DNA of 64,000 bases from a virus (Duplodnaviria > Caudoviricetes). Under the pieces are notes generated by a model. That model worked only from the letters and a program-made list of their open reading frames with translations. It made no database searches and was not told where the DNA came from. Shown piece after piece: positions 4,449-54,133 of this stretch (the first letter of the stretch is position 1; each line of letters begins with the position of its first letter). Location: IMG/VR virus record IMGVR_UViG_3300017763_003980; one strand, given 5' to 3'. A program made the position numbers and the translations under genes.

Positions 4449-4449
4449 A

Positions 4450-24118: not shown

Positions 24119-24123
24119 AATAA

Positions 24124-24130
24124 TACTTAT
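24124..24130 (-). promoter_or_regulatory. late-promoter-like box ATAAGTA, 5 nt before ATG 24118
   Basis: Same spacing as the other ATAAATA-N5-ATG sites. Confidence 0.45.
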
Positions 24131-24142
24131 CTGGAAGTCTTT

Positions 24143-36547: not shown

Positions 36548-37345
36548 TTAAGTACCTATATATCCTCCAGCAAAGTCATAGTAAAAATATTGTGTACCTG
36601 TTCGAGGAACATTTGTTACCCATTCTCCGTTTATTATTACTCCACTTTCACTACTAGTTTTGCCATGATATTCTTCGCCAGTCATATGTATGCTATTATC
36701 TACAGTAAAGATAGGAATTTGTGAAGCTCTAGACAATAATCTAAAATGTGCATCGTGCCACCTTTCGAAGTATTCATCTTCATCGTTACCTCTATTGCCG
36801 TTTGTACTATGTATAAAGAGACCTACGCCGCCCGTTTTTTGTGCTTCATTTATAATACATTTTCCACCTAACCAACTGTGTCCCCATAGATCATTACATA
36901 TTAATCCAACTATTGGTATATTACACTTTTCTGTAGTCAACCAATGAATTCGAATGCCATCCTTTTCTAAGTCATTAGGTAATGATGCATCGTGTTCGAT
37001 AATATGACTTTTATTAGTTACACCAATTAATTCACCATTATTATAAAAACGTATTTGGTTCCTTCTAACTCTTCCAAAATATTCATCTTCTTGCCACATT
37101 GTTCCTAAACAAAGACCTACTTTTTTCTCTGCGGAATATTTTTCTATTTCTGTAAGGGCGGCTTGTACATCCTCAAAGTTATAATATGGCACATACCCAC
37201 TAAGACTTCCTTCAGGAGTAACTAAGTAATCAACTTTATTTTCAGAAGCCCAATCAATTGCAGTTTTTATGGTGATAATATTTTTTTGTATATCTGCTCT
37301 TACTGGAATTTGTGCTCCGCCGATACGTATTGATCTTACTTCCAT
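36548..37345 (-). CDS. carbon-nitrogen hydrolase (nitrilase superfamily)
   Basis: Catalytic triad motifs VTPEG, NKSH, LICNDLW. Confidence 0.85.
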   Translation of the reverse strand: MEVRSIRIGGAQIPVRADIQKNIITIKTAIDWASENKVDYLVTPEGSLSGYVPYYNFEDVQAALTEIEKYSAEKKVGLCLGTMWQEDEYFGRVRRNQIRFYNNGELIGVTNKSHIIEHDASLPNDLEKDGIRIHWLTTEKCNIPIVGLICNDLWGHSWLGGKCIINEAQKTGGVGLFIHSTNGNRGNDEDEYFERWHDAHFRLLSRASQIPIFTVDNSIHMTGEEYHGKTSSESGVIINGEWVTNVPRTGTQYFYYDFAGGYIGT

Positions 37346-39044: not shown

Positions 39045-39073
39045 ATTATAGCACCAGATCTGGCTTGCGTCAA
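39045..39073 (-). promoter_or_regulatory. sigma70-type promoter
   Basis: TTGACG-N17-TATAAT with TGn. Confidence 0.7.
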
Positions 39074-39759
39074 CCACTTTCGTTAGACTGTAAATCATCT
39101 TCTATATTGAAAAATTCTTCTGATATTATATTTTCGCCAACACTATAATATGGAGGCATATCGAGATATAAATCAAATGCTATACTTACCCTTGGAGTTG
39201 TTCCAGTATACTCTGGAACAGCATGTTCGACGTAACTTGGAAATAGAGTCATTCCACCTTTGAAGTTTGATACCTCTTGACCTTGCTCCATATGCTCGTA
39301 GTATGTACATGTCTCATAGTCATCCAAATGCATATTACCACTTAAATATGCACTAAACATAGCACTGTGCCTATGTTTTGTAATACGATCTCCTTTGCGT
39401 ACTACATTAAACCAACTACCAATACGTAGATTATATGGTCTAGTTCCATCTTGCATAATATAGTTAAAGTATTGAAATTTAAGCCATTTTAGTAAATCTC
39501 CTATTTCAGGACATTCATCTTTAAATTCAAATGTATTAAATCGACCATGCCTAGTAGTAACATTGTTAGCGTCTAATCCTGTTCTACCATCATTACGATA
39601 AGGTAAGTCATTAATAATCTTTTTTTCTTTAGCTAAAAGGAATTCTCGAATAGTGTCTACTTTGTCGCTTTCATCCCATTGTGCAAATCCAAGAGGAGCG
39701 TTCCAAACTGGAGCATAAGGAGATATTGGATGCTCACTTTTAAGTCTAAGTATTTCCAT
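39070..39759 (-). CDS. putative 2OG-Fe(II) oxygenase (TIGR02466-like)
   Basis: WFNVVRKG..ITKHRH...LSGNMHL, LFPSYVEH, RVSIAFD. Confidence 0.75.
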   Translation of the reverse strand: MEILRLKSEHPISPYAPVWNAPLGFAQWDESDKVDTIREFLLAKEKKIINDLPYRNDGRTGLDANNVTTRHGRFNTFEFKDECPEIGDLLKWLKFQYFNYIMQDGTRPYNLRIGSWFNVVRKGDRITKHRHSAMFSAYLSGNMHLDDYETCTYYEHMEQGQEVSNFKGGMTLFPSYVEHAVPEYTGTTPRVSIAFDLYLDMPPYYSVGENIISEEFFNIEDDLQSNESG

Positions 39760-40169
39760 TAGCTAACCTCAGACTTTCCATCTCCTGTTGAAACTATTTT
39801 AATATGTCCCATATCTCTATCTGTAGACTGTCCTTCTTCCTCTAACATTTGTACTACAATACTCTTAAACCAAGCATCTACTATAGCTTCATTTGTTTCG
39901 CCTTGATACCCTGCATCTAGTAGTTCTTCAATAAATTGATTGTTCCAATCTAATTCAAAGAATCCATTTTTAATATTTTCTGGATTAAGTTGTGTATCAA
40001 GAACTGCTACCCAAGCCTTACCTGCTTTAGTAGCTTCTTCTTTTTCACGTTCAAGCACTGCCCTACGTTCTTCTTCTGAAGTAGATTGCACTTGTACTTC
40101 AGGTTCGACTTTCTTTTTACCTAATGTATTGTTTACAAAGTTTGCAAACCAACTTTTATCTTTTTTCAT
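39759..40169 (-). CDS. hypothetical protein
   Basis: 136 aa ORF with AGGAG RBS. Confidence 0.75.
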   Translation of the reverse strand: MKKDKSWFANFVNNTLGKKKVEPEVQVQSTSEEERRAVLEREKEEATKAGKAWVAVLDTQLNPENIKNGFFELDWNNQFIEELLDAGYQGETNEAIVDAWFKSIVVQMLEEEGQSTDRDMGHIKIVSTGDGKSEVS

Positions 40170-40265: not shown

Positions 40266-41165
40266 TCATGTACCCCATGCATTTCCGAATAAGGATATGT
40301 GGAGTCTTGGGGTGAAACGCCATCCTCTTTCCATACACGCCTCCGCAACTTCTTGAACATTAAGGTTGTACTCTTCCGAACGTCCGCCCAGCGGCATAAG
40401 ATATACTGGACAGTCGACCCCGGCGCTACGATACTCTTCGACAGCTCTAGTAACTTCATCAAAGTCATCTTTAGTAGCAACCACAAACTTAAGATAGATA
40501 TTGCTACCATCCACATTGCTATACTCACTAGCAACATCAGGCTTAATAGCAGTATCCCAAGGTTCTCCGCTAACTGATAGTTTTGGGGAACAAGACCAAG
40601 TAACTTCAAATCTGTCTTGATTGCTGAGATAGTCGCAGAAATCATCTTTGAGACGTTGCGTAGTATTTGTTTCAAATGTAACATTTTTTAAATCCTGCAT
40701 GCGTGGATGTTCGAATAGCTCAATGTAAAGCCGTTGCCACGCTAACAACGGTTCACCGCCTGTCATAATTAAATGTATATCTTGTCCATTATCCATTGTC
40801 CACTTACCTTCAGGAGTAAGTGAAAGAAGATGTTCTACTACTTCATCTACTTCTTTTTGCTTATTAAAATGCTTAAACTCAGGATAGATACTTGCATAAG
40901 TATCACAGCCTGTGTGTATAATAGGCAAATCGTTAAAGTCTACAGTTGTTTTATGTACATCTTTTGCAATTAATTCTGCAACCTCTGCATTATGCTTTTT
41001 ACCTGCTTTGTGTTGTTCCCAACGATCTCTTGTTTCATCTGTACCAAAATTCATACAACGAAAGTTACAACCGAAGGTACGTAGGAATACACTAGGGACT
41101 CCTACAAATCTACCTTCACCTTGTACAGAGTAAAAAGCTTCTGAGTATCTAAGCTTATTTCCCAC
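40266..41165 (-). CDS. queE: 7-carboxy-7-deazaguanine synthase (radical SAM)
   Basis: FYSVQGEG..VG.PSVFLR..GCNFRC...GCDT, TGGEPL, ETNTT, SPK, C-terminal PRLH; GTG start 41165 with AGGAG RBS. Confidence 0.88.
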   Translation of the reverse strand: MGNKLRYSEAFYSVQGEGRFVGVPSVFLRTFGCNFRCMNFGTDETRDRWEQHKAGKKHNAEVAELIAKDVHKTTVDFNDLPIIHTGCDTYASIYPEFKHFNKQKEVDEVVEHLLSLTPEGKWTMDNGQDIHLIMTGGEPLLAWQRLYIELFEHPRMQDLKNVTFETNTTQRLKDDFCDYLSNQDRFEVTWSCSPKLSVSGEPWDTAIKPDVASEYSNVDGSNIYLKFVVATKDDFDEVTRAVEEYRSAGVDCPVYLMPLGGRSEEYNLNVQEVAEACMERGWRFTPRLHISLFGNAWGT

Positions 41166-41844
41166 ACGCGAACTCCTGCTGAAGTTTAACATTATCGATA
41201 AACTCTTTTTTAGTTGCAGGATCGTCTTTAAATGCACCACGCAATACAGTTGTTTGTGTTAGACTACTTTTTGCTCTAATACCTCTGTTCTCACAACAAC
41301 CATGTGTCGCTTGTACGTATACGCCAACGTGTTCACTACCAGTTTGCTCTTGTATTGCATTTGCAATCATAACATTAAGCTCTTCTTGTAGTGTTCCTCG
41401 CATAGCACACCATTGTGCAATACGTGTGTACTTGCTAAGACCTAATAGTTTAGGACCTGCAATAATACCAATGTATGCCACACCTTTTACTGTTTGGTGA
41501 TGATGCGAACATAAACTTGTAAGTTCACTACGCACAACCAACATACCTTCATAACCACCTTCAATGTAGTTAGGAAATGCACTTGGGTTAGGCATTGTAT
41601 CATAACGACCAGACATAATTTCATTAATGTACATCTTAGCCATACGCCTTGCGGTGTCTTGACTGTTAGGATCTGTTTTTGTATCAATTAACAGTGTTTG
41701 TAATACATTTTCGAAAGCAGGAACTGCTTCTTCAATTAGTTGTTGCTTGTCGCCTTCTTCAAGTACTTCACTAATGTTATCATTAGCCCAGTATCTAATA
41801 CCAGCTTCTTCTAGCTTTGTTTTAATTTCTTCTACTTTGCTCAC
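41155..41844 (-). CDS. folE: GTP cyclohydrolase I
   Basis: DTARRMAK, LCSHH, LSKYTRI, LQEEL, HGCCENRG. Confidence 0.93.
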   Translation of the reverse strand: MSKVEEIKTKLEEAGIRYWANDNISEVLEEGDKQQLIEEAVPAFENVLQTLLIDTKTDPNSQDTARRMAKMYINEIMSGRYDTMPNPSAFPNYIEGGYEGMLVVRSELTSLCSHHHQTVKGVAYIGIIAGPKLLGLSKYTRIAQWCAMRGTLQEELNVMIANAIQEQTGSEHVGVYVQATHGCCENRGIRAKSSLTQTTVLRGAFKDDPATKKEFIDNVKLQQEFACGK

Positions 41845-41911
41845 GTTTTATATCTCCGATGTTAAGGCAGTGGATTGCCATTAATAATAAAATACAATGC
41901 ACAATAATATT

Positions 41912-41940
41912 ATTATACATTGTATTTAGGTTTTTGTCAA
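41912..41940 (-). promoter_or_regulatory. consensus sigma70 promoter of folE-queE
   Basis: Perfect TTGACA-N17-TATAAT; a CTAAATA late-like box lies in the spacer. Confidence 0.8.
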
Positions 41941-41945
41941 GTATT

Positions 41946-42167
41946 TTATACAAAATACTTTTCTAGCATATCAATACGGTCTTGTGCGGCCGCCATTTGA
42001 TCAAGCTCTTTCTGTATCGTTTCAATGATATCAGAATGTTCACCAATGCCTACAACCTTTTGCATGTAAACTTCGATGTTAGTCTTATGCAACTCTAACT
42101 CCGCCTCGGCGTGTTTGATAGCTGCATTCACCATTTGTTGCTTCAAATTATCCATACCTTTCTCCAA
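41946..42167 (-). CDS. small helical hypothetical protein
   Basis: 73 aa ORF, VGIGEHSDI motif. Confidence 0.75.
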   Translation of the reverse strand: MEKGMDNLKQQMVNAAIKHAEAELELHKTNIEVYMQKVVGIGEHSDIIETIQKELDQMAAAQDRIDMLEKYFV

Positions 42168-42174
42168 TATTTGG

Positions 42175-42558
42175 TTAACTTAACTGGTAATTACCTTTTT
42201 CTGGAATAACATGTCTAACGCCACCACGTGGGTCTTTAGTGTCACCATCTCTTCTAAAAATCAAATGCACGTGGGGGTACATGCAAGTTTGCCCTGCACT
42301 CTCGCCTACATTCAACCCGACATTGTATCCAGTAATATTGTTTCTATTACTTTGCACATTGTCGTAACCCATAGTAACTGCATAATTAAAACACTTGAGG
42401 ATATTCTCTTGTGTTGCTTCTCTAGGTACGATAAGAGTATGTCCTTCTGTAACCGGATAAGCATCTTTATATACTATGAAATCTCGTGTCTCCAATTCGA
42501 CATCTGTCCACGGAGCTCTGTTGTCTTGTTGTGCTAATGTTAGTGTATCAGCTTTCAT
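42175..42558 (-). CDS. HIT-family nucleotide hydrolase
   Basis: DAYPVTEGHTLIVP, YNVGLN.GESAGQT, YPHVHLI. Confidence 0.88.
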   Translation of the reverse strand: MKADTLTLAQQDNRAPWTDVELETRDFIVYKDAYPVTEGHTLIVPREATQENILKCFNYAVTMGYDNVQSNRNNITGYNVGLNVGESAGQTCMYPHVHLIFRRDGDTKDPRGGVRHVIPEKGNYQLS

Positions 42559-43115
42559 TCGTATTTACCTACGTTTTCCCAAGGGTAAACTAACCAAACA
42601 TCTTCCTCAGCTTTGTTTACTTCGTGGGCATAAAAATTAGTATGATGGAAGTCGCTAGCTAAGTTTTCTGTAAGCACTGCAAACTTTACACTGTTGCCCC
42701 AAACACTTGCCCAAGCATTATCTTCATGGGGGAAACAACCTGACATCCAGTCATTTCTAATCCAATTAAAAGTAGCACCAGTGTCATTGATATCGTCTAC
42801 AATAAGAATCTTTTTTCGTCTATCAGGATCCCATCTGCTTTTATATGTTCCTTGCTCATTATAAGGAACAATGCCAAATGCATCTTCGGCCATTGAACAG
42901 TTACTTTCTAATATGCTACCGTCACGTAGGCTAACTTTAATTGCTTCACATGGTATACCAGTCATGTTACTAATAATTGTAGCGGGAACATTGCCACCCC
43001 TTGTAATACCTACAATATAATCAGGCTTATAGTTACTTGTATACATTGTAGTTACAATTTCTGTACACATTGTTTCAACGTCTTTCCAACTATAGAAATG
43101 CTTATTGATTACCAT
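42555..43115 (-). CDS. type I phosphoribosyltransferase (purine PRT-like)
   Basis: IVGITRGG and PRPP-binding LIVDDINDTGAT, WLVYPWE. Confidence 0.88.
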   Translation of the reverse strand: MVINKHFYSWKDVETMCTEIVTTMYTSNYKPDYIVGITRGGNVPATIISNMTGIPCEAIKVSLRDGSILESNCSMAEDAFGIVPYNEQGTYKSRWDPDRRKKILIVDDINDTGATFNWIRNDWMSGCFPHEDNAWASVWGNSVKFAVLTENLASDFHHTNFYAHEVNKAEEDVWLVYPWENVGKYE

Positions 43116-43584
43116 TTAAATACTCCTCACTGTCTACCCAAGTATAACCACCGTCTGAATAAGAAGTGCCAAACTTAAAAGGCATAAAGCCCCAGCTTTT
43201 TGCTTTCTTACCCATATAAAAAAGACTCCAACAAGGTATTTCATTACCATCTTCGTCTTTAGCTAATTCTAACCAATGTAGATCATCTGAATCACGATAT
43301 CTAAAATGCCCTGGTCCTCGCCATACTGACTTACTACCTACAACAGCACCTTCTCGTGATCGAATAGGTATATGCTCATAGTAACCGCCTTTAAGAATTA
43401 GTGTTGCATAAGACCATGGATGATCATGTAACACTTCTTCGTCACTCTTTAAAACTTTGTGTAGAGTAAAGTTAAAAGGAAACCATGTACGATCTTTTAA
43501 AAATAGATAGTATCTTATAAGATAAGGAATTTTACCTGCTCTATCGTAAATTACTCTTTTTCTGTTTTTGAAAAAACTAATCAT
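43102..43584 (-). CDS. cupin-fold protein
   Basis: LHDHPW..ATLILKGGY.EH ... HWLEL, WSLF. Confidence 0.7.
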   Translation of the reverse strand: MISFFKNRKRVIYDRAGKIPYLIRYYLFLKDRTWFPFNFTLHKVLKSDEEVLHDHPWSYATLILKGGYYEHIPIRSREGAVVGSKSVWRGPGHFRYRDSDDLHWLELAKDEDGNEIPCWSLFYMGKKAKSWGFMPFKFGTSYSDGGYTWVDSEEYLNGNQ

Positions 43585-43972
43585 TTACTTTTTTCTTCCC
43601 CATCCAATCTTGATGAACCATTTTGTAAGTAACTTTAAAATTATCAAATGCTTTGCTCAATCCTGGATACTCTGCACACATGTCTTGTATTTTATTTAAA
43701 GTAGGTAATTGGTCTACAAAATCTACTGGATCGTGTGTAGTTAAAGTAATATCATCACTACCAAATGTAATATCACCACCAGTACTGATTGTAAATGTTG
43801 ATGCAGGATTACTACCAATTGTAAGTGTATCAGTTGTCCAAGAGCTCATTGTAGCAGAACTGTCGATATAACTAGTATCAATAGTATCACTTACACCAGT
43901 AAGTTTTATAGTATAATCATTATCATTTGTAAAAATATCTAACTGCTCTTTCCAATCATCGTTATTACTCAC
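43577..43972 (-). CDS. hypothetical Thr/Ser-rich protein
   Basis: Start moved to GTG 43972 (overlaps the GT stop, GAGGAG upstream). Confidence 0.65.
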   Translation of the reverse strand: MSNNDDWKEQLDIFTNDNDYTIKLTGVSDTIDTSYIDSSATMSSWTTDTLTIGSNPASTFTISTGGDITFGSDDITLTTHDPVDFVDQLPTLNKIQDMCAEYPGLSKAFDNFKVTYKMVHQDWMGKKKVND

Positions 43973-45023
43973 CTTTAATCTCCTCGTAAAGATCCTTGCC
44001 ACTAAAAAAGTTTTTCTTAAGTTTGTTAGTTTGCTTTTGTAAAGCTGGAAGATAGTCGTCATAATTTTCCATGTACTCAATTATTTTATCTATTACGTCT
44101 TGCTTATGTAACAAATAAGTTTGAAAATCTTTAGTCCATTCACTTGGATACTTAAATGTATCTGTAGCCATTTCTGAATAGCTAAGTCTGTCTGGTACCA
44201 TAGGAATTGCATCAACTACTGCGCCTTCATACCAACTAATACCTAGTGTTTCCTGTAAGTTTGCACTAAACACCATCTTAGCTTCACCAAGTAAATTATG
44301 ATATTCATTCTTTGTTAGTTGTTGCTCTTGGCATACAATAAAATCATATTGTGGAAGTGACTGTCGAAGATCATTAAAGATATCAACTTGCTTTTCAGGA
44401 GCAATTCTATGTGGAAATAATATTACATCACGTTTTTCCATATGTCGATATTGCTCTAAAGAAGTACAAAGATACTCCATAGGCCATCCAACACGTACAC
44501 TTTTTCTTTCAAAGTCTAATTCAGCTGATGCAAAGGCATCTTCGAACATATCAATGTGGAATTCGGTTGCAAAAAAATTATGATCATAACACTCATACAT
44601 ACTTGCTTCTGCAAGCCTAACCCAAGGTTTATCACCTATGAGTCTACCTAAAAAGTCTTGTGGATCATAACTACCTGCATGCCACATGCCACCAATATAA
44701 ATGTCAACACCTAGTAGCTCTGCCATATAACGAAGCTGTATAACAGTAGGGTTCCAAGCGTCGGTATACAAAAAATAGTCGCCATCACTAATCTTTCCTT
44801 TGCAGAAAAGCTCACCGATTTGTTCGAGTTGCTTGCTTTTATATACATTTGTTCCTCCGAAATTAAGGAAAGCTCCAGGCGTAGTTGCCTGAGGCGTTTC
44901 CCCTCCACTTATAACTAAAACTTCTTCATTTGTAGCTCGCTTTAATTGCTTTGGAAGATGCTCCTTCCATTGTGCAGTGTAACGAGTATCAACTGCTTCG
45001 ATATCTACAATATGAATTGTCAT
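43965..45023 (-). CDS. GT-B fold (GT4-like) glycosyltransferase
   Basis: WHAGSYD, VGWP, FPHRIAPEKQ, ETLGISWYEG (ExxGxxxxE), YPSEW. Confidence 0.75.
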   Translation of the reverse strand: MTIHIVDIEAVDTRYTAQWKEHLPKQLKRATNEEVLVISGGETPQATTPGAFLNFGGTNVYKSKQLEQIGELFCKGKISDGDYFLYTDAWNPTVIQLRYMAELLGVDIYIGGMWHAGSYDPQDFLGRLIGDKPWVRLAEASMYECYDHNFFATEFHIDMFEDAFASAELDFERKSVRVGWPMEYLCTSLEQYRHMEKRDVILFPHRIAPEKQVDIFNDLRQSLPQYDFIVCQEQQLTKNEYHNLLGEAKMVFSANLQETLGISWYEGAVVDAIPMVPDRLSYSEMATDTFKYPSEWTKDFQTYLLHKQDVIDKIIEYMENYDDYLPALQKQTNKLKKNFFSGKDLYEEIKGE

Positions 45024-45026
45024 TAG

Positions 45027-45218
45027 TTACTTCCTTTTATTAAAGCCGGCCTTCTTAGCACGAAGCCACCCACGATACCTTTCGTAAGCTTGCCAGTTTG
45101 GATCGCTCTTTTTGTAAAGAGCTTTTTCATCAAACTTCTTTCCCTCAAAGCGGCAATAGTCGCGATAAGCGTCGAGGTCGTTGAAGATCTTTGCCACAAC
45201 CGGGTTTTTAATAGACAT
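45027..45218 (-). CDS. small basic hypothetical protein
   Basis: MSIKNPVV... start ATG 45218 with upstream purine-rich RBS. Confidence 0.65.
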   Translation of the reverse strand: MSIKNPVVAKIFNDLDAYRDYCRFEGKKFDEKALYKKSDPNWQAYERYRGWLRAKKAGFNKRK

Positions 45219-45240
45219 AGTATAATTCTTCCTTTTGTCA

Positions 45241-45774
45241 TTAACTATTTGGATAAAAAATTGAACAGCCGTTTTCGTTATCTTCACTTACTTCAATTTC
45301 GACAAAACGGCCGGGATGTCGATTTGAAATTTCTTTATATAGTTCATCTGCAATCATTTCGCAGGATTTATGATCTAGAACAAGCACTTGACCTTCAGCG
45401 GAATCACTGTATAGTCTTTCAAGCCATCGCTTGAACTGAATGAATTCAATGTCTCTATCATCGTGAAACACCTCAATACGCACCCTGAAGTGGAAAATGT
45501 GACGATGAGGATGACCAAGAAAACTAACATCATCCCACCCACCTGTTGCAAGTTTGGGATCATCTAATGCTGCCGGATAACAATGAATACCTTCCTTTGA
45601 GAATGTAACCCATATACTTCGTTGTGCATTATTTAGTGCATTTTCTTTTTGCATTTTAGCATCTTCCTCTCTCATTCGTCTACCCATGTAATCATGATAG
45701 CTTTCACGATTGACTGCATCATACGATGGGTAACCTTTTTCAAAAACTGGTGATGTGTGTTCATCTTCTACCAT
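45241..45774 (-). CDS. QueD-like T-fold protein (DpdL-like)
   Basis: GIHCYP His, FLGHPHRHIF (LxxxHRHxF instead of CxxxHGH), IEFIQFK, SCEMIA, IEVSEDNENG. Confidence 0.65.
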   Translation of the reverse strand: MVEDEHTSPVFEKGYPSYDAVNRESYHDYMGRRMREEDAKMQKENALNNAQRSIWVTFSKEGIHCYPAALDDPKLATGGWDDVSFLGHPHRHIFHFRVRIEVFHDDRDIEFIQFKRWLERLYSDSAEGQVLVLDHKSCEMIADELYKEISNRHPGRFVEIEVSEDNENGCSIFYPNS

Positions 45775-45780
45775 ATTATT

Positions 45781-45809
45781 AGTATACTTTCATTTAATAG
45801 GTTTGTCAA
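45781..45809 (-). promoter_or_regulatory. sigma70-type promoter (leaderless) of the QueD-like gene
   Basis: TTGACA-N17-TATACT; -10 ends 6 nt before ATG 45774. Confidence 0.7.
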
Positions 45810-46305
45810 GGCCATATTTGGACCAATTAGTAAATTTATTTGCATCCATCAAGTCATGAAGTCTGTGACTCCAAACACCTGGATTAGTTGCGGCAAATCC
45901 TTTGTCATCAATTTTAATCATAGTGTTGTAGTTCCATAGTTTTACATATGGAATCGGAACACGGATTTGCGGAATAAAATTGTCGTACTCTGTGAGACCG
46001 TCTTCCAAAATCTCTTCTGCACAAGTAATCGGAATATCTAAACTACACCAATAATCTTGTTTTAAGAAGTGTGTAATCATTTCTCCCCAACCAGGTCCGA
46101 CCTTATTTGCTTGCACACTATGATTAGCACCAAAGAAAATATGTTTTACTTGATTATATGCCAATAGTTGTTCTTCGATATCTTTAACAGGTTGTACTCC
46201 TGTTACAAACAATGTATACATACCATATGCAGGAGTATGCTCTACTTCTGTACCAGTAAAGTATGTTACGTTATCAAACTCGCCTGCGTCATAATTTCTT
46301 TTCAT
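45790..46305 (-). CDS. hypothetical protein in the dpdA locus
   Basis: 171 aa; FTGTEVEHTPAYGMYTLFV, HIFFGANHS. Confidence 0.75.
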   Translation of the reverse strand: MKRNYDAGEFDNVTYFTGTEVEHTPAYGMYTLFVTGVQPVKDIEEQLLAYNQVKHIFFGANHSVQANKVGPGWGEMITHFLKQDYWCSLDIPITCAEEILEDGLTEYDNFIPQIRVPIPYVKLWNYNTMIKIDDKGFAATNPGVWSHRLHDLMDANKFTNWSKYGLDKPIK

Positions 46306-46514
46306 GATATAGGTCCTAGGTCAACAAGTTTCTTTTCAATTCGATGTATTTCGTCTTTAAACCATAATTTTTTTGTTTTGAGTACTACAAGTTCTTGATC
46401 TGGCATTAATTTTTTATATCCTTCGATAATTTCTTTGTCCAGTGTTCTATGCTTTTTATAAAGTTCTTGTAGGTATATTGCATATTTTTCATGCTTCGCT
46501 GTGAAGTTGCTCAT
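46302..46514 (-). CDS. small coiled-coil protein (DUF465-like)
   Basis: LYKKHRTLDKEI...LKTKKLWFKDEI. Confidence 0.6.
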   Translation of the reverse strand: MSNFTAKHEKYAIYLQELYKKHRTLDKEIIEGYKKLMPDQELVVLKTKKLWFKDEIHRIEKKLVDLGPIS

Positions 46515-48048
46515 CCTCTAGTACCTCTAACTTTTCTTCATTAAGTTCCTGCTCTTGTTCTTCTTCAACATTATCGTCTGTGTCAAACAATGAATTAAAG
46601 TAGGTTTGTGCATTAACAGTCTTTTTACCAATAGCACCTCTAGTACCTGGTATTGACATCCAGAATTTTGAAAATTCTTCAATTACTGCATTCGCTTCGT
46701 CTCGACTGTCAGTTGCGAATATTGCTTCCACAACATCTCTAAAAAATAACCTGTCGAAACGTTCTTCAACAAGCATGTTCGGAATGATTCCATTGTCGTA
46801 TTGTCTATTTGCTTCTTGTACTGCATTAATATGACTCCATACATTATGACCCATTTGGATCGCATATGAAAAACTATCCCAAGATGTTTTTCCTTCTTTA
46901 CCTATTTTATTTAGATCTCCTGGACCATATATGCATATATCTTTGGCTTGTAGTTCAGCAGTAATAGGAGAATCTTTAAAGCTAGTGTGCTTACCTTCTC
47001 TTACAAATGCACTGCCAAATGGTGTAGTATCTTGTGATAATCCTTTATCATCAATACTAGGAACCATTCGATATACCCATTTCAATCTATCTTGTGTTTC
47101 GAGTTCACAATAAATCTGTCCATTAGCAGTTGCTAAGAAAGGACTTGCACAATCAAATGTAATCATAAAGTTTGGATTATGATATTTACGAACTGCTCTT
47201 TGTATATCAGTTAGTAGTGTAGCCCACTCTAGTTTTGATGTACCTAAGAAGTGCATTACATCATGTATGCCTGTTTCCAGTAGTCCGTCGAATCTCAATG
47301 CAACTAGACGTTTAAGAACCAAATGTACATCACACATGTTCTGACCACCCATTGACCACCCATTAAAATGTGTGTCTGGATATACTTTAGGATCGCAGTA
47401 GTCTTTCATTTGATTGTACCAATCATCTGCGTCTGCGTGATTTTCGCCTTGTAATACATTTAAAAATTTACAAGCACCTGTTCTGTGCTTCATAAAATAA
47501 TCATTGTTAATACGTGTTGCGGCTACTGCTTCTGCATATGTTGAAATACCTGTTGCTTTTGCACCTTCTGGAGAACGTGCTACCCAAGCTGGAATATCAA
47601 GTATCATTCCATAGTCCATGTAAGCATCCATCCATTTAAGAACACCGTCACGTTTCTTTTGTGCTTTAGGACAGTTGGGATCTTTCCAGTCTCCTTCCCA
47701 AACGCCTTTACCAATTTGGAAACCGCCACTATCACCTAATAACCAAGTATTTGCTCTGTCTCTGTTTCGTACCATATCTTCTTTAGGTACAAACTTAGTT
47801 GTGTCTAAGTCGGCATGCCCTGCAGAATACAAACACCATTTGTATTGGAACATACCTTCTTGTTTATTAAGATAGTTTAAGCTTTCAACTCCATTTGGAA
47901 AGTTGCTAGGTACTCTAGCCGGATCAACATACGGACCTTTCACAGGATCAGGATGTCGCTGTTTACCAACATACGTTGCAAAGAACCCGCTAAGTGCTGG
48001 TAAAAAAGTTGCGTAATCCTGTTGTGCTTTTGTCAAGTCTGTAATCAT
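46489..48048 (-). CDS. dpdA: DNA 7-deazaguanine transglycosylase (TGT-like)
   Basis: LGDSGGFQ, MILDIP, VLQG, SMGG, HFLG, FDCASP, GHN: ordered TGT active-site motifs, next to folE/queE. Confidence 0.8.
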   Translation of the reverse strand: MITDLTKAQQDYATFLPALSGFFATYVGKQRHPDPVKGPYVDPARVPSNFPNGVESLNYLNKQEGMFQYKWCLYSAGHADLDTTKFVPKEDMVRNRDRANTWLLGDSGGFQIGKGVWEGDWKDPNCPKAQKKRDGVLKWMDAYMDYGMILDIPAWVARSPEGAKATGISTYAEAVAATRINNDYFMKHRTGACKFLNVLQGENHADADDWYNQMKDYCDPKVYPDTHFNGWSMGGQNMCDVHLVLKRLVALRFDGLLETGIHDVMHFLGTSKLEWATLLTDIQRAVRKYHNPNFMITFDCASPFLATANGQIYCELETQDRLKWVYRMVPSIDDKGLSQDTTPFGSAFVREGKHTSFKDSPITAELQAKDICIYGPGDLNKIGKEGKTSWDSFSYAIQMGHNVWSHINAVQEANRQYDNGIIPNMLVEERFDRLFFRDVVEAIFATDSRDEANAVIEEFSKFWMSIPGTRGAIGKKTVNAQTYFNSLFDTDDNVEEEQEQELNEEKLEVLEDEQLHSEA

Positions 48049-48251: not shown

Positions 48252-48983
48252 TTATTTGCTCTGTGCTGGAAGTATGTAATCATATTTTGCCAAACCACTA
48301 TCTACACTAATTTGCATAGCACCTTGATCACTAATACTCATAGTAATATCACCATCTAAATTTAAGATAGCTTGCACTTGTGCAACAGGCCAACTCCATG
48401 TATGAGATAATGTACCTTCGACACCAGCTTCAAAAACAAATGTACCTGCGTGTGTACTTGCATCACCAAAGCTAAACACTAAGTCATTGTCTTTAGTTGA
48501 AACATTAAATGTAGGCTCTTCTGAGTGTGCCGCACTTTGCAATTTCATTCTACCAATTGCTGCCATACTAGGTTGAAATGTTACATTCCAAGACGCACCT
48601 TTAAATTTTACACTTTTAAGTTTTTCTTCAATGATCTGTTTATTCATAAATCGATAATCATTTTCAAAGTCACCACTTGCGTTTTCAAAGTGTATATGTG
48701 TAGGAATAACTTCACCGTTCCTATCAGCAGTTACTACATCAATTTTAGCATCTTTTTGATACTCAGGATTTTTTAAATGTAATGCTAGTTTATCTAGGTT
48801 AGGCATTCCAAATGTGCCGTTAAATTCTGACACAGCTGAGTGCGTAGTAGAATTTAAAATCACAGAACGATCTTCTGCCATACTTTCGAAAGTTGTTGCT
48901 TCGCTTTCACTGTTTACCTTTACTAAGCTTAAAAAGCCTAGTGCGTGGGTTTTAGCAACAACGTCTTGTAAAATGTCTTTCAT
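48252..48983 (-). CDS. putative sliding clamp / replication accessory protein
   Basis: 243 aa, two-domain beta-rich pattern, C-terminal YDYILPA, location near DNA polymerase; no decisive motif. Confidence 0.45.
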   Translation of the reverse strand: MKDILQDVVAKTHALGFLSLVKVNSESEATTFESMAEDRSVILNSTTHSAVSEFNGTFGMPNLDKLALHLKNPEYQKDAKIDVVTADRNGEVIPTHIHFENASGDFENDYRFMNKQIIEEKLKSVKFKGASWNVTFQPSMAAIGRMKLQSAAHSEEPTFNVSTKDNDLVFSFGDASTHAGTFVFEAGVEGTLSHTWSWPVAQVQAILNLDGDITMSISDQGAMQISVDSGLAKYDYILPAQSK

Positions 48984-49744
48984 GCGGGTTCTCCATTAGT
49001 TATATTAAGTATAATGCCTTTATCAGCGTTTGTCAAGTAGTTTTCTATACTATATTTAGGTTTAAAGCCTAAGCTTTTCATTTTTTCTGTATTAGCACAT
49101 GTAAATGTCCTTTCGTTCGGGGTATTTAGACGAATAGGAGCATCAGGTGCTAAGTCACGGACTTTAATCGGGTTACCTGATCCGATGTCTAATACTCCTT
49201 TGACATGGGGTTTATTAATTAGTATTTGTATAGCATCGCAAACATCATTAATATGTATGAAGTCTCGATGATGGTTAGTTACGTATTCTAATTTATTGTT
49301 AAAAAGTTTATCAAGAAACATTCCTTTTCTTGGAGTGTCACTCCATACAGTATGAAATCTCATACCTAATGTATTTGGATAGCGTTCTGCTAATTCTTCT
49401 AGCACATATTTACTTGCCGCATAAGGATTTAAGTCTGGTTCGTATGCACTCGAACTGCTCGCATACAATATACGTGTTTCAGGATAACGCTCAAACAATC
49501 GCCTACTTGCTTCTATATTATTCTGCCAATATGCCGCAGGATCATTAATGCTTTCACGAACACCAGAACGTCCTGCTAAGTGTATAATTAAATCAAAATC
49601 TACGTTAGGTAAATCACAAGTAAGCAAGTCTTGTCCGTCTAATAAATCGATACCTACTACGTCATTGTGTAATAGTCTTTTGTGCAATCTACTACCAATA
49701 AATCCTCTATGACCTGTTAGTAGTATTTTTTGTACGGCTATCAT
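48980..49744 (-). CDS. NAD-dependent epimerase/dehydratase (extended SDR)
   Basis: ILLTGHRGFIG, IHLAG, YASSSS, YAASK, RFHTVW; start approximate. Confidence 0.85.
   Translation of the reverse strand: MIAVQKILLTGHRGFIGSRLHKRLLHNDVVGIDLLDGQDLLTCDLPNVDFDLIIHLAGRSGVRESINDPAAYWQNNIEASRRLFERYPETRILYASSSSAYEPDLNPYAASKYVLEELAERYPNTLGMRFHTVWSDTPRKGMFLDKLFNNKLEYVTNHHRDFIHINDVCDAIQILINKPHVKGVLDIGSGNPIKVRDLAPDAPIRLNTPNERTFTCANTEKMKSLGFKPKYSIENYLTNADKGIILNITNGEPA
49008..49036 (-). promoter_or_regulatory. sigma70-type promoter
   Basis: TTGACA-N17-TATACT upstream of 48983. Confidence 0.7.
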
Positions 49745-50460
49745 GATGCTATTCCAGACTCTTGAAAAAATTGTAGATACTCTCTTGTTTGCTGCCAACT
49801 ACTTACTGCTCTAGTGTGGTTCACAACTTGTGCTAAAGGATAATCGTTTCCGTCCTTATCCATTCTATCTCCGAAGAAATATTTAGTATCTTCGGCATCA
49901 AAGTCTTTTATAATTTGTGCTTTATCAGTGCCGATAGGTGATATATCGATACCTGTTTCTCCGCCTACTGTTGCCTTGATCTTAGGAAACAATGCATTGA
50001 ATTGTCTTGCAATTATTTCACGTTCAGAAGTTAAAGAGTCATAAACTACATATTTTTCTCTTTGTTCTTTTGTTGCATTGCGACCAACAACACTAAAATT
50101 TACCATACCAGGACGATGTTCAAAATGCAATCCTGTTCGTAAGTTGAAATCACTTTCTGTGAGCTCAATACTAAGCCACTCGTGTGCATCTTCTGGTAAT
50201 ATCCAATCGTTAGATCTAACATTTACATCTTTTTCCCAAACATCATTACCATTGCAATTATATACACGTTTACAGCTATTATAAATTGTTTCGCCGATTT
50301 GTTCGAGCGTTTTAGGCCGATCACTGCCTGTAACAAGATAAACATCATTTGATTGGCAAAACGATTTAAACCAAACTGCAAATCGTTCATCGATTACTTG
50401 CCTGCTCGGAGTTAATGTTCCGTCAACATCAAAAATAAATTTATTTTTTACTTTTTTCAC
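49741..50460 (-). CDS. HAD-IIB phosphomannomutase-like protein (eukaryote-type PMM)
   Basis: FIFDVDGTLTPSR, LVTGSD, GMVNFS..GRNA..EQR, GGETGIDI, FFGD...GNDYPL; GTG start 50460. Confidence 0.8.
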   Translation of the reverse strand: MKKVKNKFIFDVDGTLTPSRQVIDERFAVWFKSFCQSNDVYLVTGSDRPKTLEQIGETIYNSCKRVYNCNGNDVWEKDVNVRSNDWILPEDAHEWLSIELTESDFNLRTGLHFEHRPGMVNFSVVGRNATKEQREKYVVYDSLTSEREIIARQFNALFPKIKATVGGETGIDISPIGTDKAQIIKDFDAEDTKYFFGDRMDKDGNDYPLAQVVNHTRAVSSWQQTREYLQFFQESGIAS

Positions 50461-50620
50461 CCTTCTTTTTCCTTTTTGCATACATACCACTAGTATATTC
50501 TACTTCTTCAGATCTAGCACCATATGGATAAACTGTAATTTCGTTGCCTTTAGCTAACCATTCTTTGACTAATTTTCTGTCTGCTTCAATAGCCAATCTC
50601 TTTTCTTCTGCGTCAGTCAT
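50441..50620 (-). CDS. small hypothetical protein (59 aa, absent from ORF track)
   Basis: MTDAEEKRLAIEADRKLVKEWLAKGNEIT...; ATGA overlap with the upstream stop. Confidence 0.65.
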   Translation of the reverse strand: MTDAEEKRLAIEADRKLVKEWLAKGNEITVYPYGARSEEVEYTSGMYAKRKKKGEKSKK

Positions 50621-51033
50621 TTCTTCTCCGTGTCAGCTACTCGTGAACGTAAATCACTTGTGCTGAATCGGTGATCTCGTTTATTAAAATGCAAATCTAT
50701 ATCTCTACTACGACATATATCCTTGCCAGTAAAATCCTTATCGCGATATTCTTCTCCTAATATTCTAATGTTTATAGGATACATCTGCAAAATATCTTCT
50801 AAATCTTCTTCTGTGCCATAAGGGATAATTTCATCTACATAACCAACTGCTTTTAATTGTGTATAACGTTCTACAATAGTTTGTATTGGTGAGTTCTTTT
50901 CTTTTCTATCTACGCTAGGATCAACTTGTAACCCCACTAACAAATAGTCGCATTGCTCTTTCGCTTCACGTAGCATAATTACATGTCCTGCATGTAATAG
51001 ATCAAATGTACTGCAAGTAAATCCTACTTTCAT
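50617..51033 (-). CDS. glycerol-3-phosphate cytidylyltransferase-like nucleotidyltransferase
   Basis: TFDLLHAGH (HIGH), LLVGLQVD, RILGEEY, RDHRFSTS. Confidence 0.88.
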   Translation of the reverse strand: MKVGFTCSTFDLLHAGHVIMLREAKEQCDYLLVGLQVDPSVDRKEKNSPIQTIVERYTQLKAVGYVDEIIPYGTEEDLEDILQMYPINIRILGEEYRDKDFTGKDICRSRDIDLHFNKRDHRFSTSDLRSRVADTEKK

Positions 51034-51362
51034 TAGTGTTTCCTTTGCCCGTCAAAGACGCAAATAAAATACATGTCTGCATCACGTGGATTTATTACTT
51101 TATGGAATACACCATCATTGATAGGTACTACATCGCCTGCTTCTACTTCGATAAATTCATTATCCAATTGCATTTGTCCTGCCCCTTCGATAAACAAATA
51201 TACTTCTTCTTGTCCATCATGTTTATGTCCACTTGTTTCTTTATGTCCGTGTAATCTGGTACTGCTTAGGACTAGTGTATTACCAAAAGGATTGTCTTTA
51301 ACAACATACCTATCATCTTGTTTTGCAATATAACCGCCTATGTCATCCAGATTTACTTTCAT
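51033..51362 (-). CDS. cupin_2 protein (mannose-6-phosphate isomerase-like)
   Basis: HKHDGQEEVYLFIEG.G...GDVVPI.DG.FHKV. Confidence 0.8.
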   Translation of the reverse strand: MKVNLDDIGGYIAKQDDRYVVKDNPFGNTLVLSSTRLHGHKETSGHKHDGQEEVYLFIEGAGQMQLDNEFIEVEAGDVVPINDGVFHKVINPRDADMYFICVFDGQRKH

Positions 51363-51463: not shown

Positions 51464-54133
51464 TTATTCTCCAAAATCAAATAAACTGTTAAACGTATTG
51501 TTACGCTTTGTATCTTCTAACGGATAGTTTAGCACACCAATTAAGTTGTCTAGCTTATTATCAATAATAGTTTCTGCCATTGCTGCATCGTCAAATGGCA
51601 GTTCTTTGAACCAATCAGGTATATGAAGCTCATCTGTTGGATAAGCAACACTTGTATACCCTAGTGGGTTCTGTTTTAATTTACAAACAATAACTTTCAT
51701 ACCGTCAACAATTTCTTGCGAATACTTGTCGCCATTCATGCGTTTAAGTGTATTCCAGTTAATGCTTGCTCGTACATGACCAGGCATATTTGCCTTGCCT
51801 TGTTTTTCTTCTAGTCGCTGATAGTGACCAATTTTATTAGCACGTTTCGGCGAACCCTTTTCCCAACCAGGACGTTCACTAAACTCTTTACGGAATACAG
51901 TAATACGTTCTAGTACATCTTCTACTGGCTTGTCTGTTAGTACCATTAGTAATAGTTCACTTAAAAACTCTTGCATAAACACAGGTGTATCTGATCTACG
52001 CAAGTCTAAGCCCATAGCTTTTACTTTTCCAGCTTTGCCATCAACGTCAGTTCTAAACCCTTCGTTGTCAATTACTAGTGCTGCATAACGTTTCTTAGTA
52101 ATATATAATCCGCTTTCTGCAACAATTTCTCTACCAGCTGCAATAACTTCTGCACGACTTGCTGGACAGTGAAATGCTTGGGCCATAAATTTTGTAAACG
52201 TACTATCTACAGCCTCGCTTACTTGATCATAAAGCTTAATAGCATTTTCTTTTGACCATGGAATTTTACCTGAATCAATATCAGCTTTAAGTGTTGGGTA
52301 TGCACTAAAATATACAGAGTCAGTGTCACCATAAATTACTGCTTCACCTGTGTGATCATACTTACCTGCAATGACGTTGTTAGCTTCTGCACTCATATGC
52401 TTAACAATAGTTCGACCACTTAGTGTGGTTGATTGACCAATTCTTTTATCAAAAAATCTACAGCCTGGATTTAAAATAGCACCATACAAACTATTCAAGT
52501 TAATCTTCTTAACAAGTTGACGTTTGTCCCAGTATTCAATTTCAATAGAATTGCCTGCGTCTTTTGCTTTTTTAAGTTGTGCTTGTAGATCTTTACGTTC
52601 ACTATACCAACGCTTTAGAAGTCCAGGAATAACACCTTCGTATTCTGTTGTAAAAATTGTGCCATTTGAACTAAGCATCCAAGGTTTATTACTATCAAAG
52701 ATTACTTTGTATATTTCAGCACCACTCATTACCTTTGATTCGCCGTTCTCAAAGTCAACTGTAAGTGCAACATCTTTGCGTTGCTCCATAACAGCTTCGT
52801 ATTCTTCTGTACTAAAACGCCCTTCCCAACTACCTGCAAATGACTTTTTCTTTAGACCCATATCTTCTGTTACACGAGCATCTGAAATATCAGGACGTAT
52901 TTGTCCAACAATAGTTGCCGGATCCATATTCAATGCACGAATTACACTAGGATATAGACTGTTCAAGTCCATACTTGCAATCCATTTGTGCAGTCCTTTT
53001 TTCGGAAATGCCACATACGCACCTGCGGCTTGTGTGTTTTCATCATCACGTTTTGCACGATTAGGAACTTGCATGCCTCGATGATGTGCTTCGTTGACAA
53101 TGGCTTGTTCTGTAACTGCTACGGCCCCCATAGTGGTTTGTAGCAAAACAGTGTTTGCATGAGCAAGTTCGTTACTAAGATCAATAAATCTTAGTTTTTT
53201 GTCCAGCTTGTCCAGTAGTGCGGTATCTTGTATGTTGTATTCGATGAACTTTCTAAAGTCATTGTTGTACAATGCGTCCAAAGTACCTTCATAAGGGACC
53301 TTGTTCTCGCCAACTTCGATTTCGCCAATGGCATCAAGTCTATATGTGTGTCTTTCTTCATATGTATATTTACGATATAAATTCAAACTATCTAAATGCA
53401 CTCTGCCTATTAGGTCAAAGGTTTGTGCTATTTTACCATACTTTTCATATTCACGCTTCTTAGGAAGTTGTCCCCACAAGCAAAATCTACGTGTGTCATC
53501 TTTGCTTAGTACACGAGCAGTTCTGTTTACAGTATAAGGAATATCATAACCTTCGCTGTTCCAACCTGATAAGATATCACTATCTTCAATCAGTGTCAAG
53601 AAAGTGTCAATCATGTCACCTTCTTTTTCAAACAACATTACATTGTCGATACCTTCAAGTTCTTTTTTAGCTTCGTCCATAGTAAGTGTCTTAGGAGGAA
53701 CAGCCAAGCATACCATTGTTTCTAACCATTGCAAGTATACTGAGATACTTGTAATAGGCATAAAGGGATCACTTGGATCAGCAAAGCCTCTCTCTGGATC
53801 AAAGTCAGTCTCAATATCAAAGAATGCAATGTTTAGTTTAGGTGCATCTTGATTAAGATAGTTTTCACTTAAACATTGAAATATAGGATTAATGTCGCTT
53901 TCGAATAGTTGCTTGTCTCTATTAATAGCAACTTCTTTGCGGAAGTCTTTTGTGTTTTTGCAAACAATACGACTTAGTGGGTCACCGTATATACTTTTAT
54001 ACTTGCCACGTTGGTCTTTGTAATAAAAAGTATACTTTACCGGATACTCTGTAAAATGTCTTTTGCCTTCTCGACGTTCAACAGCTCTAATAATATCAGA
54101 ATCTCTATCGAACATTGCGTCCACGTAACTCAA
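51464..54133 (-). CDS. polB: family B DNA polymerase (T4 gp43-like)
   Basis: Exo motifs FFDIETD, WNSEGYD, YNIQD; pol motifs DLNSLYPS, KINLNSLYG, YGDTDS, KKRY; TTG start with GAGGAGG RBS. Confidence 0.95.
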   Translation of the reverse strand: MSYVDAMFDRDSDIIRAVERREGKRHFTEYPVKYTFYYKDQRGKYKSIYGDPLSRIVCKNTKDFRKEVAINRDKQLFESDINPIFQCLSENYLNQDAPKLNIAFFDIETDFDPERGFADPSDPFMPITSISVYLQWLETMVCLAVPPKTLTMDEAKKELEGIDNVMLFEKEGDMIDTFLTLIEDSDILSGWNSEGYDIPYTVNRTARVLSKDDTRRFCLWGQLPKKREYEKYGKIAQTFDLIGRVHLDSLNLYRKYTYEERHTYRLDAIGEIEVGENKVPYEGTLDALYNNDFRKFIEYNIQDTALLDKLDKKLRFIDLSNELAHANTVLLQTTMGAVAVTEQAIVNEAHHRGMQVPNRAKRDDENTQAAGAYVAFPKKGLHKWIASMDLNSLYPSVIRALNMDPATIVGQIRPDISDARVTEDMGLKKKSFAGSWEGRFSTEEYEAVMEQRKDVALTVDFENGESKVMSGAEIYKVIFDSNKPWMLSSNGTIFTTEYEGVIPGLLKRWYSERKDLQAQLKKAKDAGNSIEIEYWDKRQLVKKINLNSLYGAILNPGCRFFDKRIGQSTTLSGRTIVKHMSAEANNVIAGKYDHTGEAVIYGDTDSVYFSAYPTLKADIDSGKIPWSKENAIKLYDQVSEAVDSTFTKFMAQAFHCPASRAEVIAAGREIVAESGLYITKKRYAALVIDNEGFRTDVDGKAGKVKAMGLDLRRSDTPVFMQEFLSELLLMVLTDKPVEDVLERITVFRKEFSERPGWEKGSPKRANKIGHYQRLEEKQGKANMPGHVRASINWNTLKRMNGDKYSQEIVDGMKVIVCKLKQNPLGYTSVAYPTDELHIPDWFKELPFDDAAMAETIIDNKLDNLIGVLNYPLEDTKRNNTFNSLFDFGE

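Follow-up and report, generated by a model that had tools for sequence, protein, structure and literature searches.

A candidate DpdL-type, QueC-less 7-deazaguanine DNA-modification module with an embedded glycosyltransferase in a large marine phage

The 64,000-nt stretch of IMG/VR virus record IMGVR_UViG_3300017763_003980 (Duplodnaviria; Caudoviricetes) that we analysed, called the window below, carries at positions 40266-48048 a group of genes predicted to make a 7-deazaguanine and place it in DNA, and among these genes lies a glycosyltransferase (GT) gene (Table 1, which follows the locus up to position 54133). The minus strand carries all transcription from ~22 kb to the window end. A first-pass annotation, made from the letters of the sequence, had described folE, queE, a QueD-like gene and dpdA within 8 kb, interleaved with a GT-B glycosyltransferase, a phosphoribosyltransferase (PRTase), a HIT hydrolase and a cupin. 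All of the genes it named are present on the minus strand within 40266-48048, and the pathway genes are real; the QueD label did not stand, because the gene in question is dpdL, and the set is better written FolE/QueE/DpdL. A megablast search of 50,697 phage records returned no close DNA relative of the locus. Many marine contigs nevertheless keep its gene order at ~80% protein identity, indicating that the arrangement is not due to chance.

Table 1. Features of the locus and its promoter-like sites, in the direction of transcription (window positions).
Feature	Positions	Strand	Basis and remarks
Family B DNA polymerase	51464..54133	-	PF00136 5e-35, PF03104 1.4e-17; C-terminus FNSLFD-FGE
Small cupin (Cupin_2), first gene of nucleotide-sugar module	51033..51362	-	PF07883 3e-12; position kept in relatives L003-L006
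Sugar-phosphate nucleotidyltransferase (CTP_transf_like)	50617..51033	-	PF01467 1.3e-13; phrog_7878 1.2e-35; TIGR02199 7.2e-20 (below its cut-off)
HAD-IIB, phosphomannomutase-like enzyme	49741..50490	-	PF03332 6.9e-21; TIGR01484 3.5e-14
NAD-dependent nucleotide-sugar epimerase/dehydratase	48980..49798	-	PF01370 9.9e-23; phrog_540 6.7e-43
Putative sliding clamp, 243 aa, between polymerase/sugar genes and dpdA	48252..48983	-	Relatives' annotations
Divergent DpdA, TGT-superfamily DNA transglycosylase candidate, 519 aa	46489..48048	-	AlphaFold2 model and Foldseek
DUF465 small protein	46302..46514	-	PF04325 6.7e-8; retained in relatives
171-aa protein, no assigned family	45790..46305	-	phmmer 7e-8 to ACP17 L009:8323-8721
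Sigma-70-like match TTGACA, 17 nt, TATACT	45781..45809	-	11/12 positions; consensus match only
DpdL, QueD paralogue	45241..45774	-	Signature LxxxHRHxF; likely start ATG at 45654
63-aa basic protein between dpdL and GT	45027..45218	-	Open reading frame with ribosome-binding site; 66-aa gene at equivalent place in relatives
GT4-type GT-B glycosyltransferase, 352 aa	43965..45023	-	AlphaFold2 model, Foldseek, conserved residues
Small protein 3' of GT	43577..43900	-	106-aa gene in relatives; weak match to PA5oct gp319, 6e-4
Cupin-like protein, H-x-H metal motif, distantly cysteine dioxygenase-like	43102..43584	-	phrog_4786 1.6e-29
Purine PRTase, xanthine/guanine-PRTase-like	42555..43115	-	PF00156 1e-8; NF006613 1.7e-9 (below its cut-off)
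HIT-family nucleotide hydrolase/transferase	42175..42558	-	PF01230 3.3e-7
Perfect sigma-70 consensus TTGACA, 17 nt, TATAAT, directly 5' of folE	41912..41940	-	12/12 positions; consensus match only
GTP cyclohydrolase I (FolE)	41155..41844	-	PF01227 1.8e-37, 128.9 bits against a cut-off of 27; NF006824 2.6e-41
QueE-like radical SAM CDG synthase	40266..41240	-	phrog_2076 4e-54 over residues 25-323

FolE, QueD and QueE together make 7-carboxy-7-deazaguanine (CDG) from GTP. The protein that had been called QueD-like reads L-G-H-P-H-R-H-I-F at the place of the QueD motif CxxxHGH, and L46, H50, H52 and F54 are invariant across 8 lineages. Replacement of CxxxHGH by LxxxHRHxF defines DpdL, a paralogue of QueD (Cui, Hutinet et al., NAR 2023, PMC10516641). 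The window protein is recognisably related to the founding member, phiST CGPG_00067 (phmmer 5e-13, tblastn 7e-7), and is 56-67% identical by BLAST to the copies in phages PA5oct, Phosso and ACP17 (ACP17 56%, 6e-40). A profile comparison with phage QueD (hhalign) gave 82.6% probability over 52 C-terminal columns; there was no Pfam PTPS hit, and sequence-only searches of Pfam, NCBIfam and the PDB gave nothing. By its signature and its relatives the gene is DpdL, a candidate CDG decarboxylase, and as such it points to a base on the 7-deazaguanine (DG) branch known from phiST. Vibrio phage Bakedbeans (contig L177, 6260-7411) encodes DpdL as the C-terminal portion of a 383-aa fusion protein, behind an N-terminal domain of ~250 aa without an assigned family.

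The queE gene probably starts ~25 codons inside the listed open reading frame (ORF), and its product matches the NCBIfam QueE models at 1e-8 to 1e-12, below the cut-off of every curated model. The radical-SAM cysteines are arranged as C-x3-C, ~49 residues, then C-D-T; the compact CxxxCxxC is not the form found here.

Neither queC nor queF occurs in the window, as the first-pass annotation had said. The only QueC-like ORF (24077-25018, plus strand) was rejected as a hidden QueC: it reaches 19.6 bits against a cut-off of 22, matches in the PP-loop only and scores equally on AsnB, TilS and ArgG-related models. This PP-loop ATPase ORF lies in a cluster with oxygenases, a B12 radical SAM enzyme, a desaturase and a GNAT gene. 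A search that detected QueC in 14 of 14 control genomes found none in a 357.6-kb relative (CheckV 100% complete) or in the full PA5oct, Phosso and ACP17 genomes. QueD, which has no counterpart within the window, is present away from the locus in these same four genomes, ~55 kb from dpdA in the complete relative. DpdL here occurs with FolE, QueD, QueE and DpdA and without QueC, the composition reported for DpdL-bearing phages (PMC10516641). The first-pass reading of a QueC-less 7-deazaguanine locus is supported. Of the two origins that had been offered for the base, derivation from CDG or construction from host preQ0/preQ1, nothing points to the second.

The DpdA candidate was recognised by its predicted structure. 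Its AlphaFold2 (AF2) model (pLDDT 89.5, pTM 0.89; residues 471-500 below 50) retrieved tRNA-guanine transglycosylases (TGT) as all of the best 50 PDB matches in Foldseek (best E 2.6e-7, probability 1.0, TM score by target ~0.5). By sequence, the window protein has no Pfam TGT (PF01702) hit, no NCBIfam match and no PDB sequence or profile hit; among 46 members of its family, 1 hits PF01702, at 0.043. We aligned the window protein with 45 relatives from two protein searches, down to 27% identity, and found D106, S107 and G109 (DSGGFQ), D151-x-P153 (LD-IP), H266 and G269 (HFLG) and D299 (FDC) invariant in all 46 sequences; by motif, we take the aspartates to correspond to TGT D102, D156 and D280. 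D106, D151 and Q200 match, again by motif, the residues with which TGT reads the 2-amino-6-oxo face of the base. We conclude from the model that "dpdA" is a very divergent TGT-superfamily enzyme and a candidate DNA transglycosylase. The catalytic aspartates are in place, and the zinc motif of TGT is absent. The family is large, with 965 representatives at 50% identity and >7,800 clusters at 90% identity, many of them from marine/TARA samples on contigs up to ~340 kb. The family profile, scored in a small set (112 sequences), picks up ACP17 DpdA (7e-9), a TGT-annotated gene of phage BUDD (2e-4) and DpdA3 of phiST (3.6e-4).

The embedded GT-B glycosyltransferase was likewise confirmed. Its AF2 model (pLDDT 84.6) has the two Rossmann domains of a GT-B enzyme, and its best PDB matches (E 1e-7 to 1e-5, TM 0.6-0.67) are led by BshA (1.1e-7, TM 0.67), followed by PglA, MshA and PimB', with glycogen synthase among them. 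In the Swiss-Prot part of the AlphaFold database the best 30 matches are almost all GT4-type GT-B enzymes, and the best viral match (BFVD) is the ACP17 orthologue, with a TM of 0.86. Four lineages, 37-46% identical, all keep E258 and E266 (E-x7-E; QETLGISWYEG), R206 and K211; the roles of these residues, donor diphosphate binding for the basic residues, are presumably those of GT4 enzymes. There was no Pfam Glycos_transf_1 or Glyco_transf_4 hit at E <= 0.01 and no NCBIfam or PDB sequence match, and PF00534 was seen only in Atlas look-alikes of the protein. The model, its fold matches and the intact residues indicate that this is a genuine GT4-type retaining GT-B glycosyltransferase. A QTMAN-like enzyme was rejected for the window copy, which has no PF12038 hit at E <= 0.01 and does not find QTMAN among its best 30 Swiss-Prot folds. 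Nor is a T4-type DNA glucosyltransferase indicated: neither T4 alpha-GT nor beta-GT is named among the best 50 PDB or BFVD fold matches. A predicted complex of DpdA(1-470) with the GT scored 0.00, which is evidence neither way, and the pI of the GT (4.85-5.98 in all lineages) is uninformative because DpdA is acidic too.

A full-length orthologue of this GT occurs in 17 of the 50,697 phage records, and 17 of 17 also hold DpdL. Co-occurrence of GT and dpdA had been named as a check on the first-pass reading, and the orthologous GT does lie beside dpdA or dpdL in PA5oct-like phages, ACP17, BUDD/X1, BCSR5, Phosso and BUCT-ZZ01. Direct adjacency to one of these two genes, often with overlap, is found in seven lineages that share little else. 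The order is dpdA, GT, dpdL in PA5oct and dpdA, GT, dpdL, queE in ACP17; the GT adjoins dpdA in BUDD and BCSR5; and in Phosso dpdL adjoins the GT, beside folE. The seventh lineage, the Synechococcus phage BUCT-ZZ01, was found with a profile of six GTs (2.5e-34) and has the GT directly after dpdL. Weaker partial matches (e.g. PhiXhv-15) stand in an unrelated amino-sugar context.

Relatives of DpdA that lack DpdL are informative in this respect. Two more distant family members (47% and 33% identity; on contig L174 and on the contig carrying P0244) occupy the same slot, after the polymerase and a clamp-like gene, and are followed by QueC. DpdL and the GT are absent from L174 (Logan SRR26074200), as confirmed on DNA, and from the gene calls of the P0244 contig. 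Across these lineages QueC and the pair of DpdL and GT take each other's place as alternative cassettes, and the GT tracks DpdL and not DpdA as such. The L174 cluster also includes a myo-inositol-1-phosphate synthase gene.

Some members of these lineages carry further genes at the locus. BUCT-ZZ01 (contig L179) has two GT-B genes (3376-4719 and 6367-7533), the orthologue after dpdL and a 447-aa group-1 GT, and its annotated xanthine-guanine PRTase adjoins queE. BUDD (L172:5374-5868) and BCSR5 (L173:5137-5784) keep a PAPS-reductase-family (PP-loop) gene and two unassigned genes just 5' of the GT, a set that differs from that of the window and may provide an alternative carboxylate-activating step.

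A second link between DpdA and its surroundings is a short peptide. FNSLFD is found at the polymerase C-terminus (51476-51493) and in the disordered acidic tail of DpdA (46582-46599, within the low-pLDDT segment 471-500), both on the minus strand. In a six-frame scan of the window for stop-to-stop segments of at least 60 residues (229 segments, 33,297 residues), these two were the only occurrences. In other lineages the motif varies in parallel in the polymerase and the DpdA tail: FDSLF and FNSLFD in PA5oct, SLDDLFE and TLDELFE in ACP17, where both are C-terminal, and SLLF in both proteins of contig L174. Such a motif lies within the last 55 residues of 40 of 97 full-length DpdA representatives, compared with 5.5 +/- 2.3 for body windows of the same proteins and 11.3 +/- 3.2 for shuffled tails. 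In T4-family phages the hydrophobic-acidic polymerase C-terminus is a clamp-binding peptide that is common to other clamp clients (PMC3012046, PMC2988020). Because FNSLFD is shared with the polymerase, whose C-terminus has this function in T4-family phages, the sequence suggests that DpdA docks on the sliding clamp via FNSLFD. The putative clamp of the window is 38% identical to a protein of PAC2 (PA5oct group) annotated PCNA and 30% identical to the Phosso "sliding clamp", and its gene is always near the polymerase in relatives; PDB sequence and profile searches with it found nothing. Clamp docking would fit the genome position of dpdA and also the reports that DpdA3-type systems replace the base completely.

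These observations point to a DpdL-type, QueC-less 7-deazaguanine DNA-modification module, surrounded by replication genes in a large T4-like marine phage and extended by an undescribed sugar step, a reading whose chances we regard as evenly balanced. We infer the chemical steps and the clamp binding from the gene identities, folds, catalytic residues and linkage set out above. FolE, QueE and a QueD encoded elsewhere in the genome would convert GTP to CDG, and DpdL would process CDG, by decarboxylation to DG according to the proposal in the literature. The divergent TGT-fold DpdA, tethered to the sliding clamp at the fork, would exchange the guanine of newly synthesised DNA for the deazapurine, and the GT would transfer a sugar onto the deazaguanine, most likely after its insertion into DNA. 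The neighbouring nucleotidyltransferase, mutase and epimerase could supply the sugar donor. The PRTase, which is of the guanine/xanthine type and has homologues in the PA5oct and BUCT-ZZ01 clusters (4e-8 and 4.8e-16, the latter annotated XGPRT), could recycle excised guanine to GMP and GTP.

The more specific proposal, that the phage carries a sugar-bearing 7-deazapurine in its DNA, made at the fork by a clamp-tethered DpdA and then a GT4 enzyme and enabled by the free C7 that DpdL leaves, seems to us plausible while falling somewhat short of even chances. Such a free C7 would account for a GT that accompanies DpdL only and is never found with QueC. Our literature searches turned up no report of glycosylated deazaguanine in DNA, nor of a sugar on a DNA purine or deazapurine. 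The only experimental hint comes from PA5oct, which carries the module: its virion DNA resists five restriction enzymes, in a pattern attributed by the authors to a modified G of unknown structure (PMC12191111).

Several points weigh against a sugar step of this kind. Phage phiST makes 7-deazaguanine in DNA (dDG) with DpdL, to full replacement and with no GT (PMC10516641), so the GT is dispensable for the core pathway, and no GT was seen near dpdL in at least four DpdL lineages (phiST, RHph_I1_18, Ahp1 and Bakedbeans). The main difficulty is chemical: plain DG has no evident hydroxyl that could be O-glycosylated, which leaves as acceptor C7, N2, O6 or a group added by another enzyme, for which the cupin-like protein is one candidate. 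The four-gene sugar module (48980-51362), which lies outside the region delimited by the first-pass annotation, is kept in relatives L003-L006, is missing at the corresponding loci of PA5oct, ACP17 and Phosso, and may serve another target. The core of the pathway has its own difficulties: the CDG decarboxylase activity of DpdL, leading to dDG, is a proposal that is as yet unproven, and E. coli expressing the phiST or the ACP17 dpdL, each with the dpdA of the same phage, made no dDG (PMC10516641). DpdA lacks the zinc site of TGT (CxCxxC...H), and its family alignment shows no conserved Cys or His at that place; the clamp is identified through the annotations of its relatives.

The dispensability of the GT in phiST and the missing hydroxyl are also what an ordinary DpdL-type system would predict, one that gives plain dDG or dCDG (the CDG counterpart in DNA) while the GT has a different acceptor, for example a protein, a small molecule or a glycan of virion or host, and only travels along with the replication and deazaguanine genes. 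The closest folds fit this alternative as well, being small-molecule or lipid-linked GT4 enzymes (BshA, MshA, PimB', PglA) and not the T4 DNA glucosyltransferases. A co-travelling gene is harder to reconcile with full-length orthologues that occur only in DpdL-bearing phages and adjacent to dpdA or dpdL in seven lineages, and with QueC-type relatives that fill the same genomic slot and have no GT, and we consider this explanation unlikely, if still one to be taken seriously.

Alternatively, glycosylation by the GT could precede insertion, with the free base or a pterin or deazapurine intermediate as acceptor, in which case DpdA would insert a glycosylated base or the product would be a soluble glycoside. 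There is precedent for a free acceptor in huimycin HuiG, which acts on a free preQ0-derived 7-deazapurine and whose family of biosynthetic gene clusters has GTs with PF13439, the GT4 N-terminal domain (bioRxiv 10.64898/2026.04.15.718813). Tetrahydrobiopterin glucosyltransferases do appear among the PDB fold matches of the window GT, but at ranks 21, 28, 30, 32 and 47, below generic GT4 enzymes, and the D106, D151 and Q200 that DpdA keeps, mapped by motif to reading of the 2-amino-6-oxo face, would leave little room for a bulky N2 group. We judge this route improbable.

In the tubercidin and toyocamycin pathways a PRTase couples a deazapurine to phosphoribosyl pyrophosphate (PRPP). A corresponding route at the nucleotide level, in which the PRTase couples CDG or DG to PRPP, HIT is among the processing enzymes, a polymerase incorporates the product and the TGT-like protein does other work, could draw on a PRTase that lies inside the cluster in three lineages (the window, PA5oct and BUCT-ZZ01) and on the HIT gene that adjoins it, but strikes us as very improbable given that the examined loci of ACP17, Phosso, BUDD and BCSR5 lack the PRTase, that its nearest model, a xanthine/guanine PRTase, suits a role in salvaging excised guanine, that the catalytic residues of DpdA are invariant, and that every phage known with 7-deazaguanines encodes DpdA, insertion being held to be post-replicative (PMC10516641).

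The module proposed here, with a sugar step after insertion, bears most similarity to the DpdL/DpdA3 system of phiST, with which it has in common FolE, QueE, a DpdL with LxxxHRHxF, a TGT-superfamily DpdA, the lack of QueC and a QueD in the genome. The phiST system has no glycosyltransferase, PRTase, HIT or sugar genes, and its DpdA3 is 259 aa long, compared with 519 aa here, with no recognisable pairwise similarity (the family profile reaches it weakly, at the 3.6e-4 given above). The window, unlike phiST, has its module between polymerase/clamp genes and a 5'-3' exonuclease, and a DpdA with a polymerase-like tail peptide. PA5oct (Wroclawvirus) is syntenic over gp316-gp322: a clamp-like gene, DpdA (36% identity), GT (44%), DpdL (58%), the PRTase and QueE, then RNase H. 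Where the window has its four-gene sugar module, PA5oct has a truncated short-chain dehydrogenase/reductase (SDR) gene. The paper on PA5oct names only QueE and PTPS, with no mention of DpdA, DpdL or the GT, and the base was not identified (PMC12191111).

As in T4, whose alpha- and beta-glucosyltransferases modify 5-hydroxymethylcytosine (hmC), a phage GT-B enzyme is encoded beside base-modification genes and would decorate the modified base; no relationship was detected beyond the GT-B fold, and the acceptor here would be a purine analogue. The sugars known in DNA are on pyrimidines, as in the glucosyl- and arabinosyl-hmC of T-even phages and in base J. QTMAN belongs to GT4, and QTMAN/GTDC1 and huimycin HuiG have in common with our proposal a GT4-family sugar transfer onto a 7-deazaguanine scaffold. 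Their substrates are tRNA queuosine, at the cyclopentenediol hydroxyl, or a free base, unlike the DNA substrate proposed here. If the proposal is true, this would be the first glycosylated purine analogue in any genome. New in our analysis are the alternative cassettes, the seventh lineage BUCT-ZZ01, the recurring PRTase, the peptide shared by polymerase and DpdA and the negative QTMAN test.

The module is very common. Abundant marine phages carry it, as do cultured phages of Pseudomonas, Acidovorax, Xanthomonas, Burkholderia, Sinorhizobium and Synechococcus, so that the chemistry can be settled with existing stocks. Our reading would bear on the nature of the modified G of PA5oct. A need for the GT or the clamp could explain why dpdL plus dpdA gave no product in E. 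coli, and a DpdA that rides the clamp could explain complete replacement by some DpdA enzymes. Such bases matter for evasion of restriction and CRISPR, for defence nucleases that sense hypermodified DNA and for tools in sequencing and enzymology.

Two promoter-like sites lie within the locus. The 11/12 sigma-70-like match at 45809-45781 is directly 5' of dpdL, the small basic ORF and the GT, which agrees with the first-pass statement that the GT lies downstream of the promoter of the QueD-like gene, and the perfect consensus 5' of folE likely splits the locus into at least two transcription units. Promoter-like sites overall show no excess over shuffled sequence (42 found, 43.4 expected).

Among the remaining genes, the sugar-phosphate nucleotidyltransferase has heptose-1-phosphate adenylyltransferase and glycerol-3-phosphate cytidylyltransferase as its nearest models. 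The 171-aa protein 3' of the DUF465 gene has no Pfam, PHROG or Atlas family and weakly resembles the gene directly 5' of dpdA in ACP17. A listed 167-aa ORF with a TTG start overlaps the GT, so that the shorter form given in Table 1 for the small protein 3' of the GT is more likely. The cysteine dioxygenase-like character of the cupin-like protein goes back to an Atlas lead (CDO_I) that scores only 0.82, and a 73-aa ORF sits between the HIT gene and folE.

The locus is followed on its 3' side by a 2-oxoglutarate (2OG)-Fe(II) oxygenase and then the 5'-3' exonuclease/RNase H. On the same strand just 3' of the locus (36548-37345, 39070-39759 and 34698-35824) are a CN-hydrolase (nitrilase-superfamily) gene and three oxygenases of the 2OG-Fe(II)/Asp-Arg-hydroxylase type, for which no link to deazaguanine genes was found in other lineages. 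Between queE and the 5'-3' exonuclease, relatives carry a 136-aa gene of the HhH-GPD (DNA-glycosylase) superfamily (L003:18233-18643, also in L004 and L006), and the window has in its place an unrelated 136-aa gene and the 2OG-Fe(II) oxygenase. We rejected the 136-aa gene of the window (39759-40169) as a counterpart of the HhH-GPD gene, because the two are not homologous despite their equivalent positions. Host END nucleases sense hypermodified DNA via an inactivated EndoIII domain, and given this the HhH-GPD gene of the relatives may matter.

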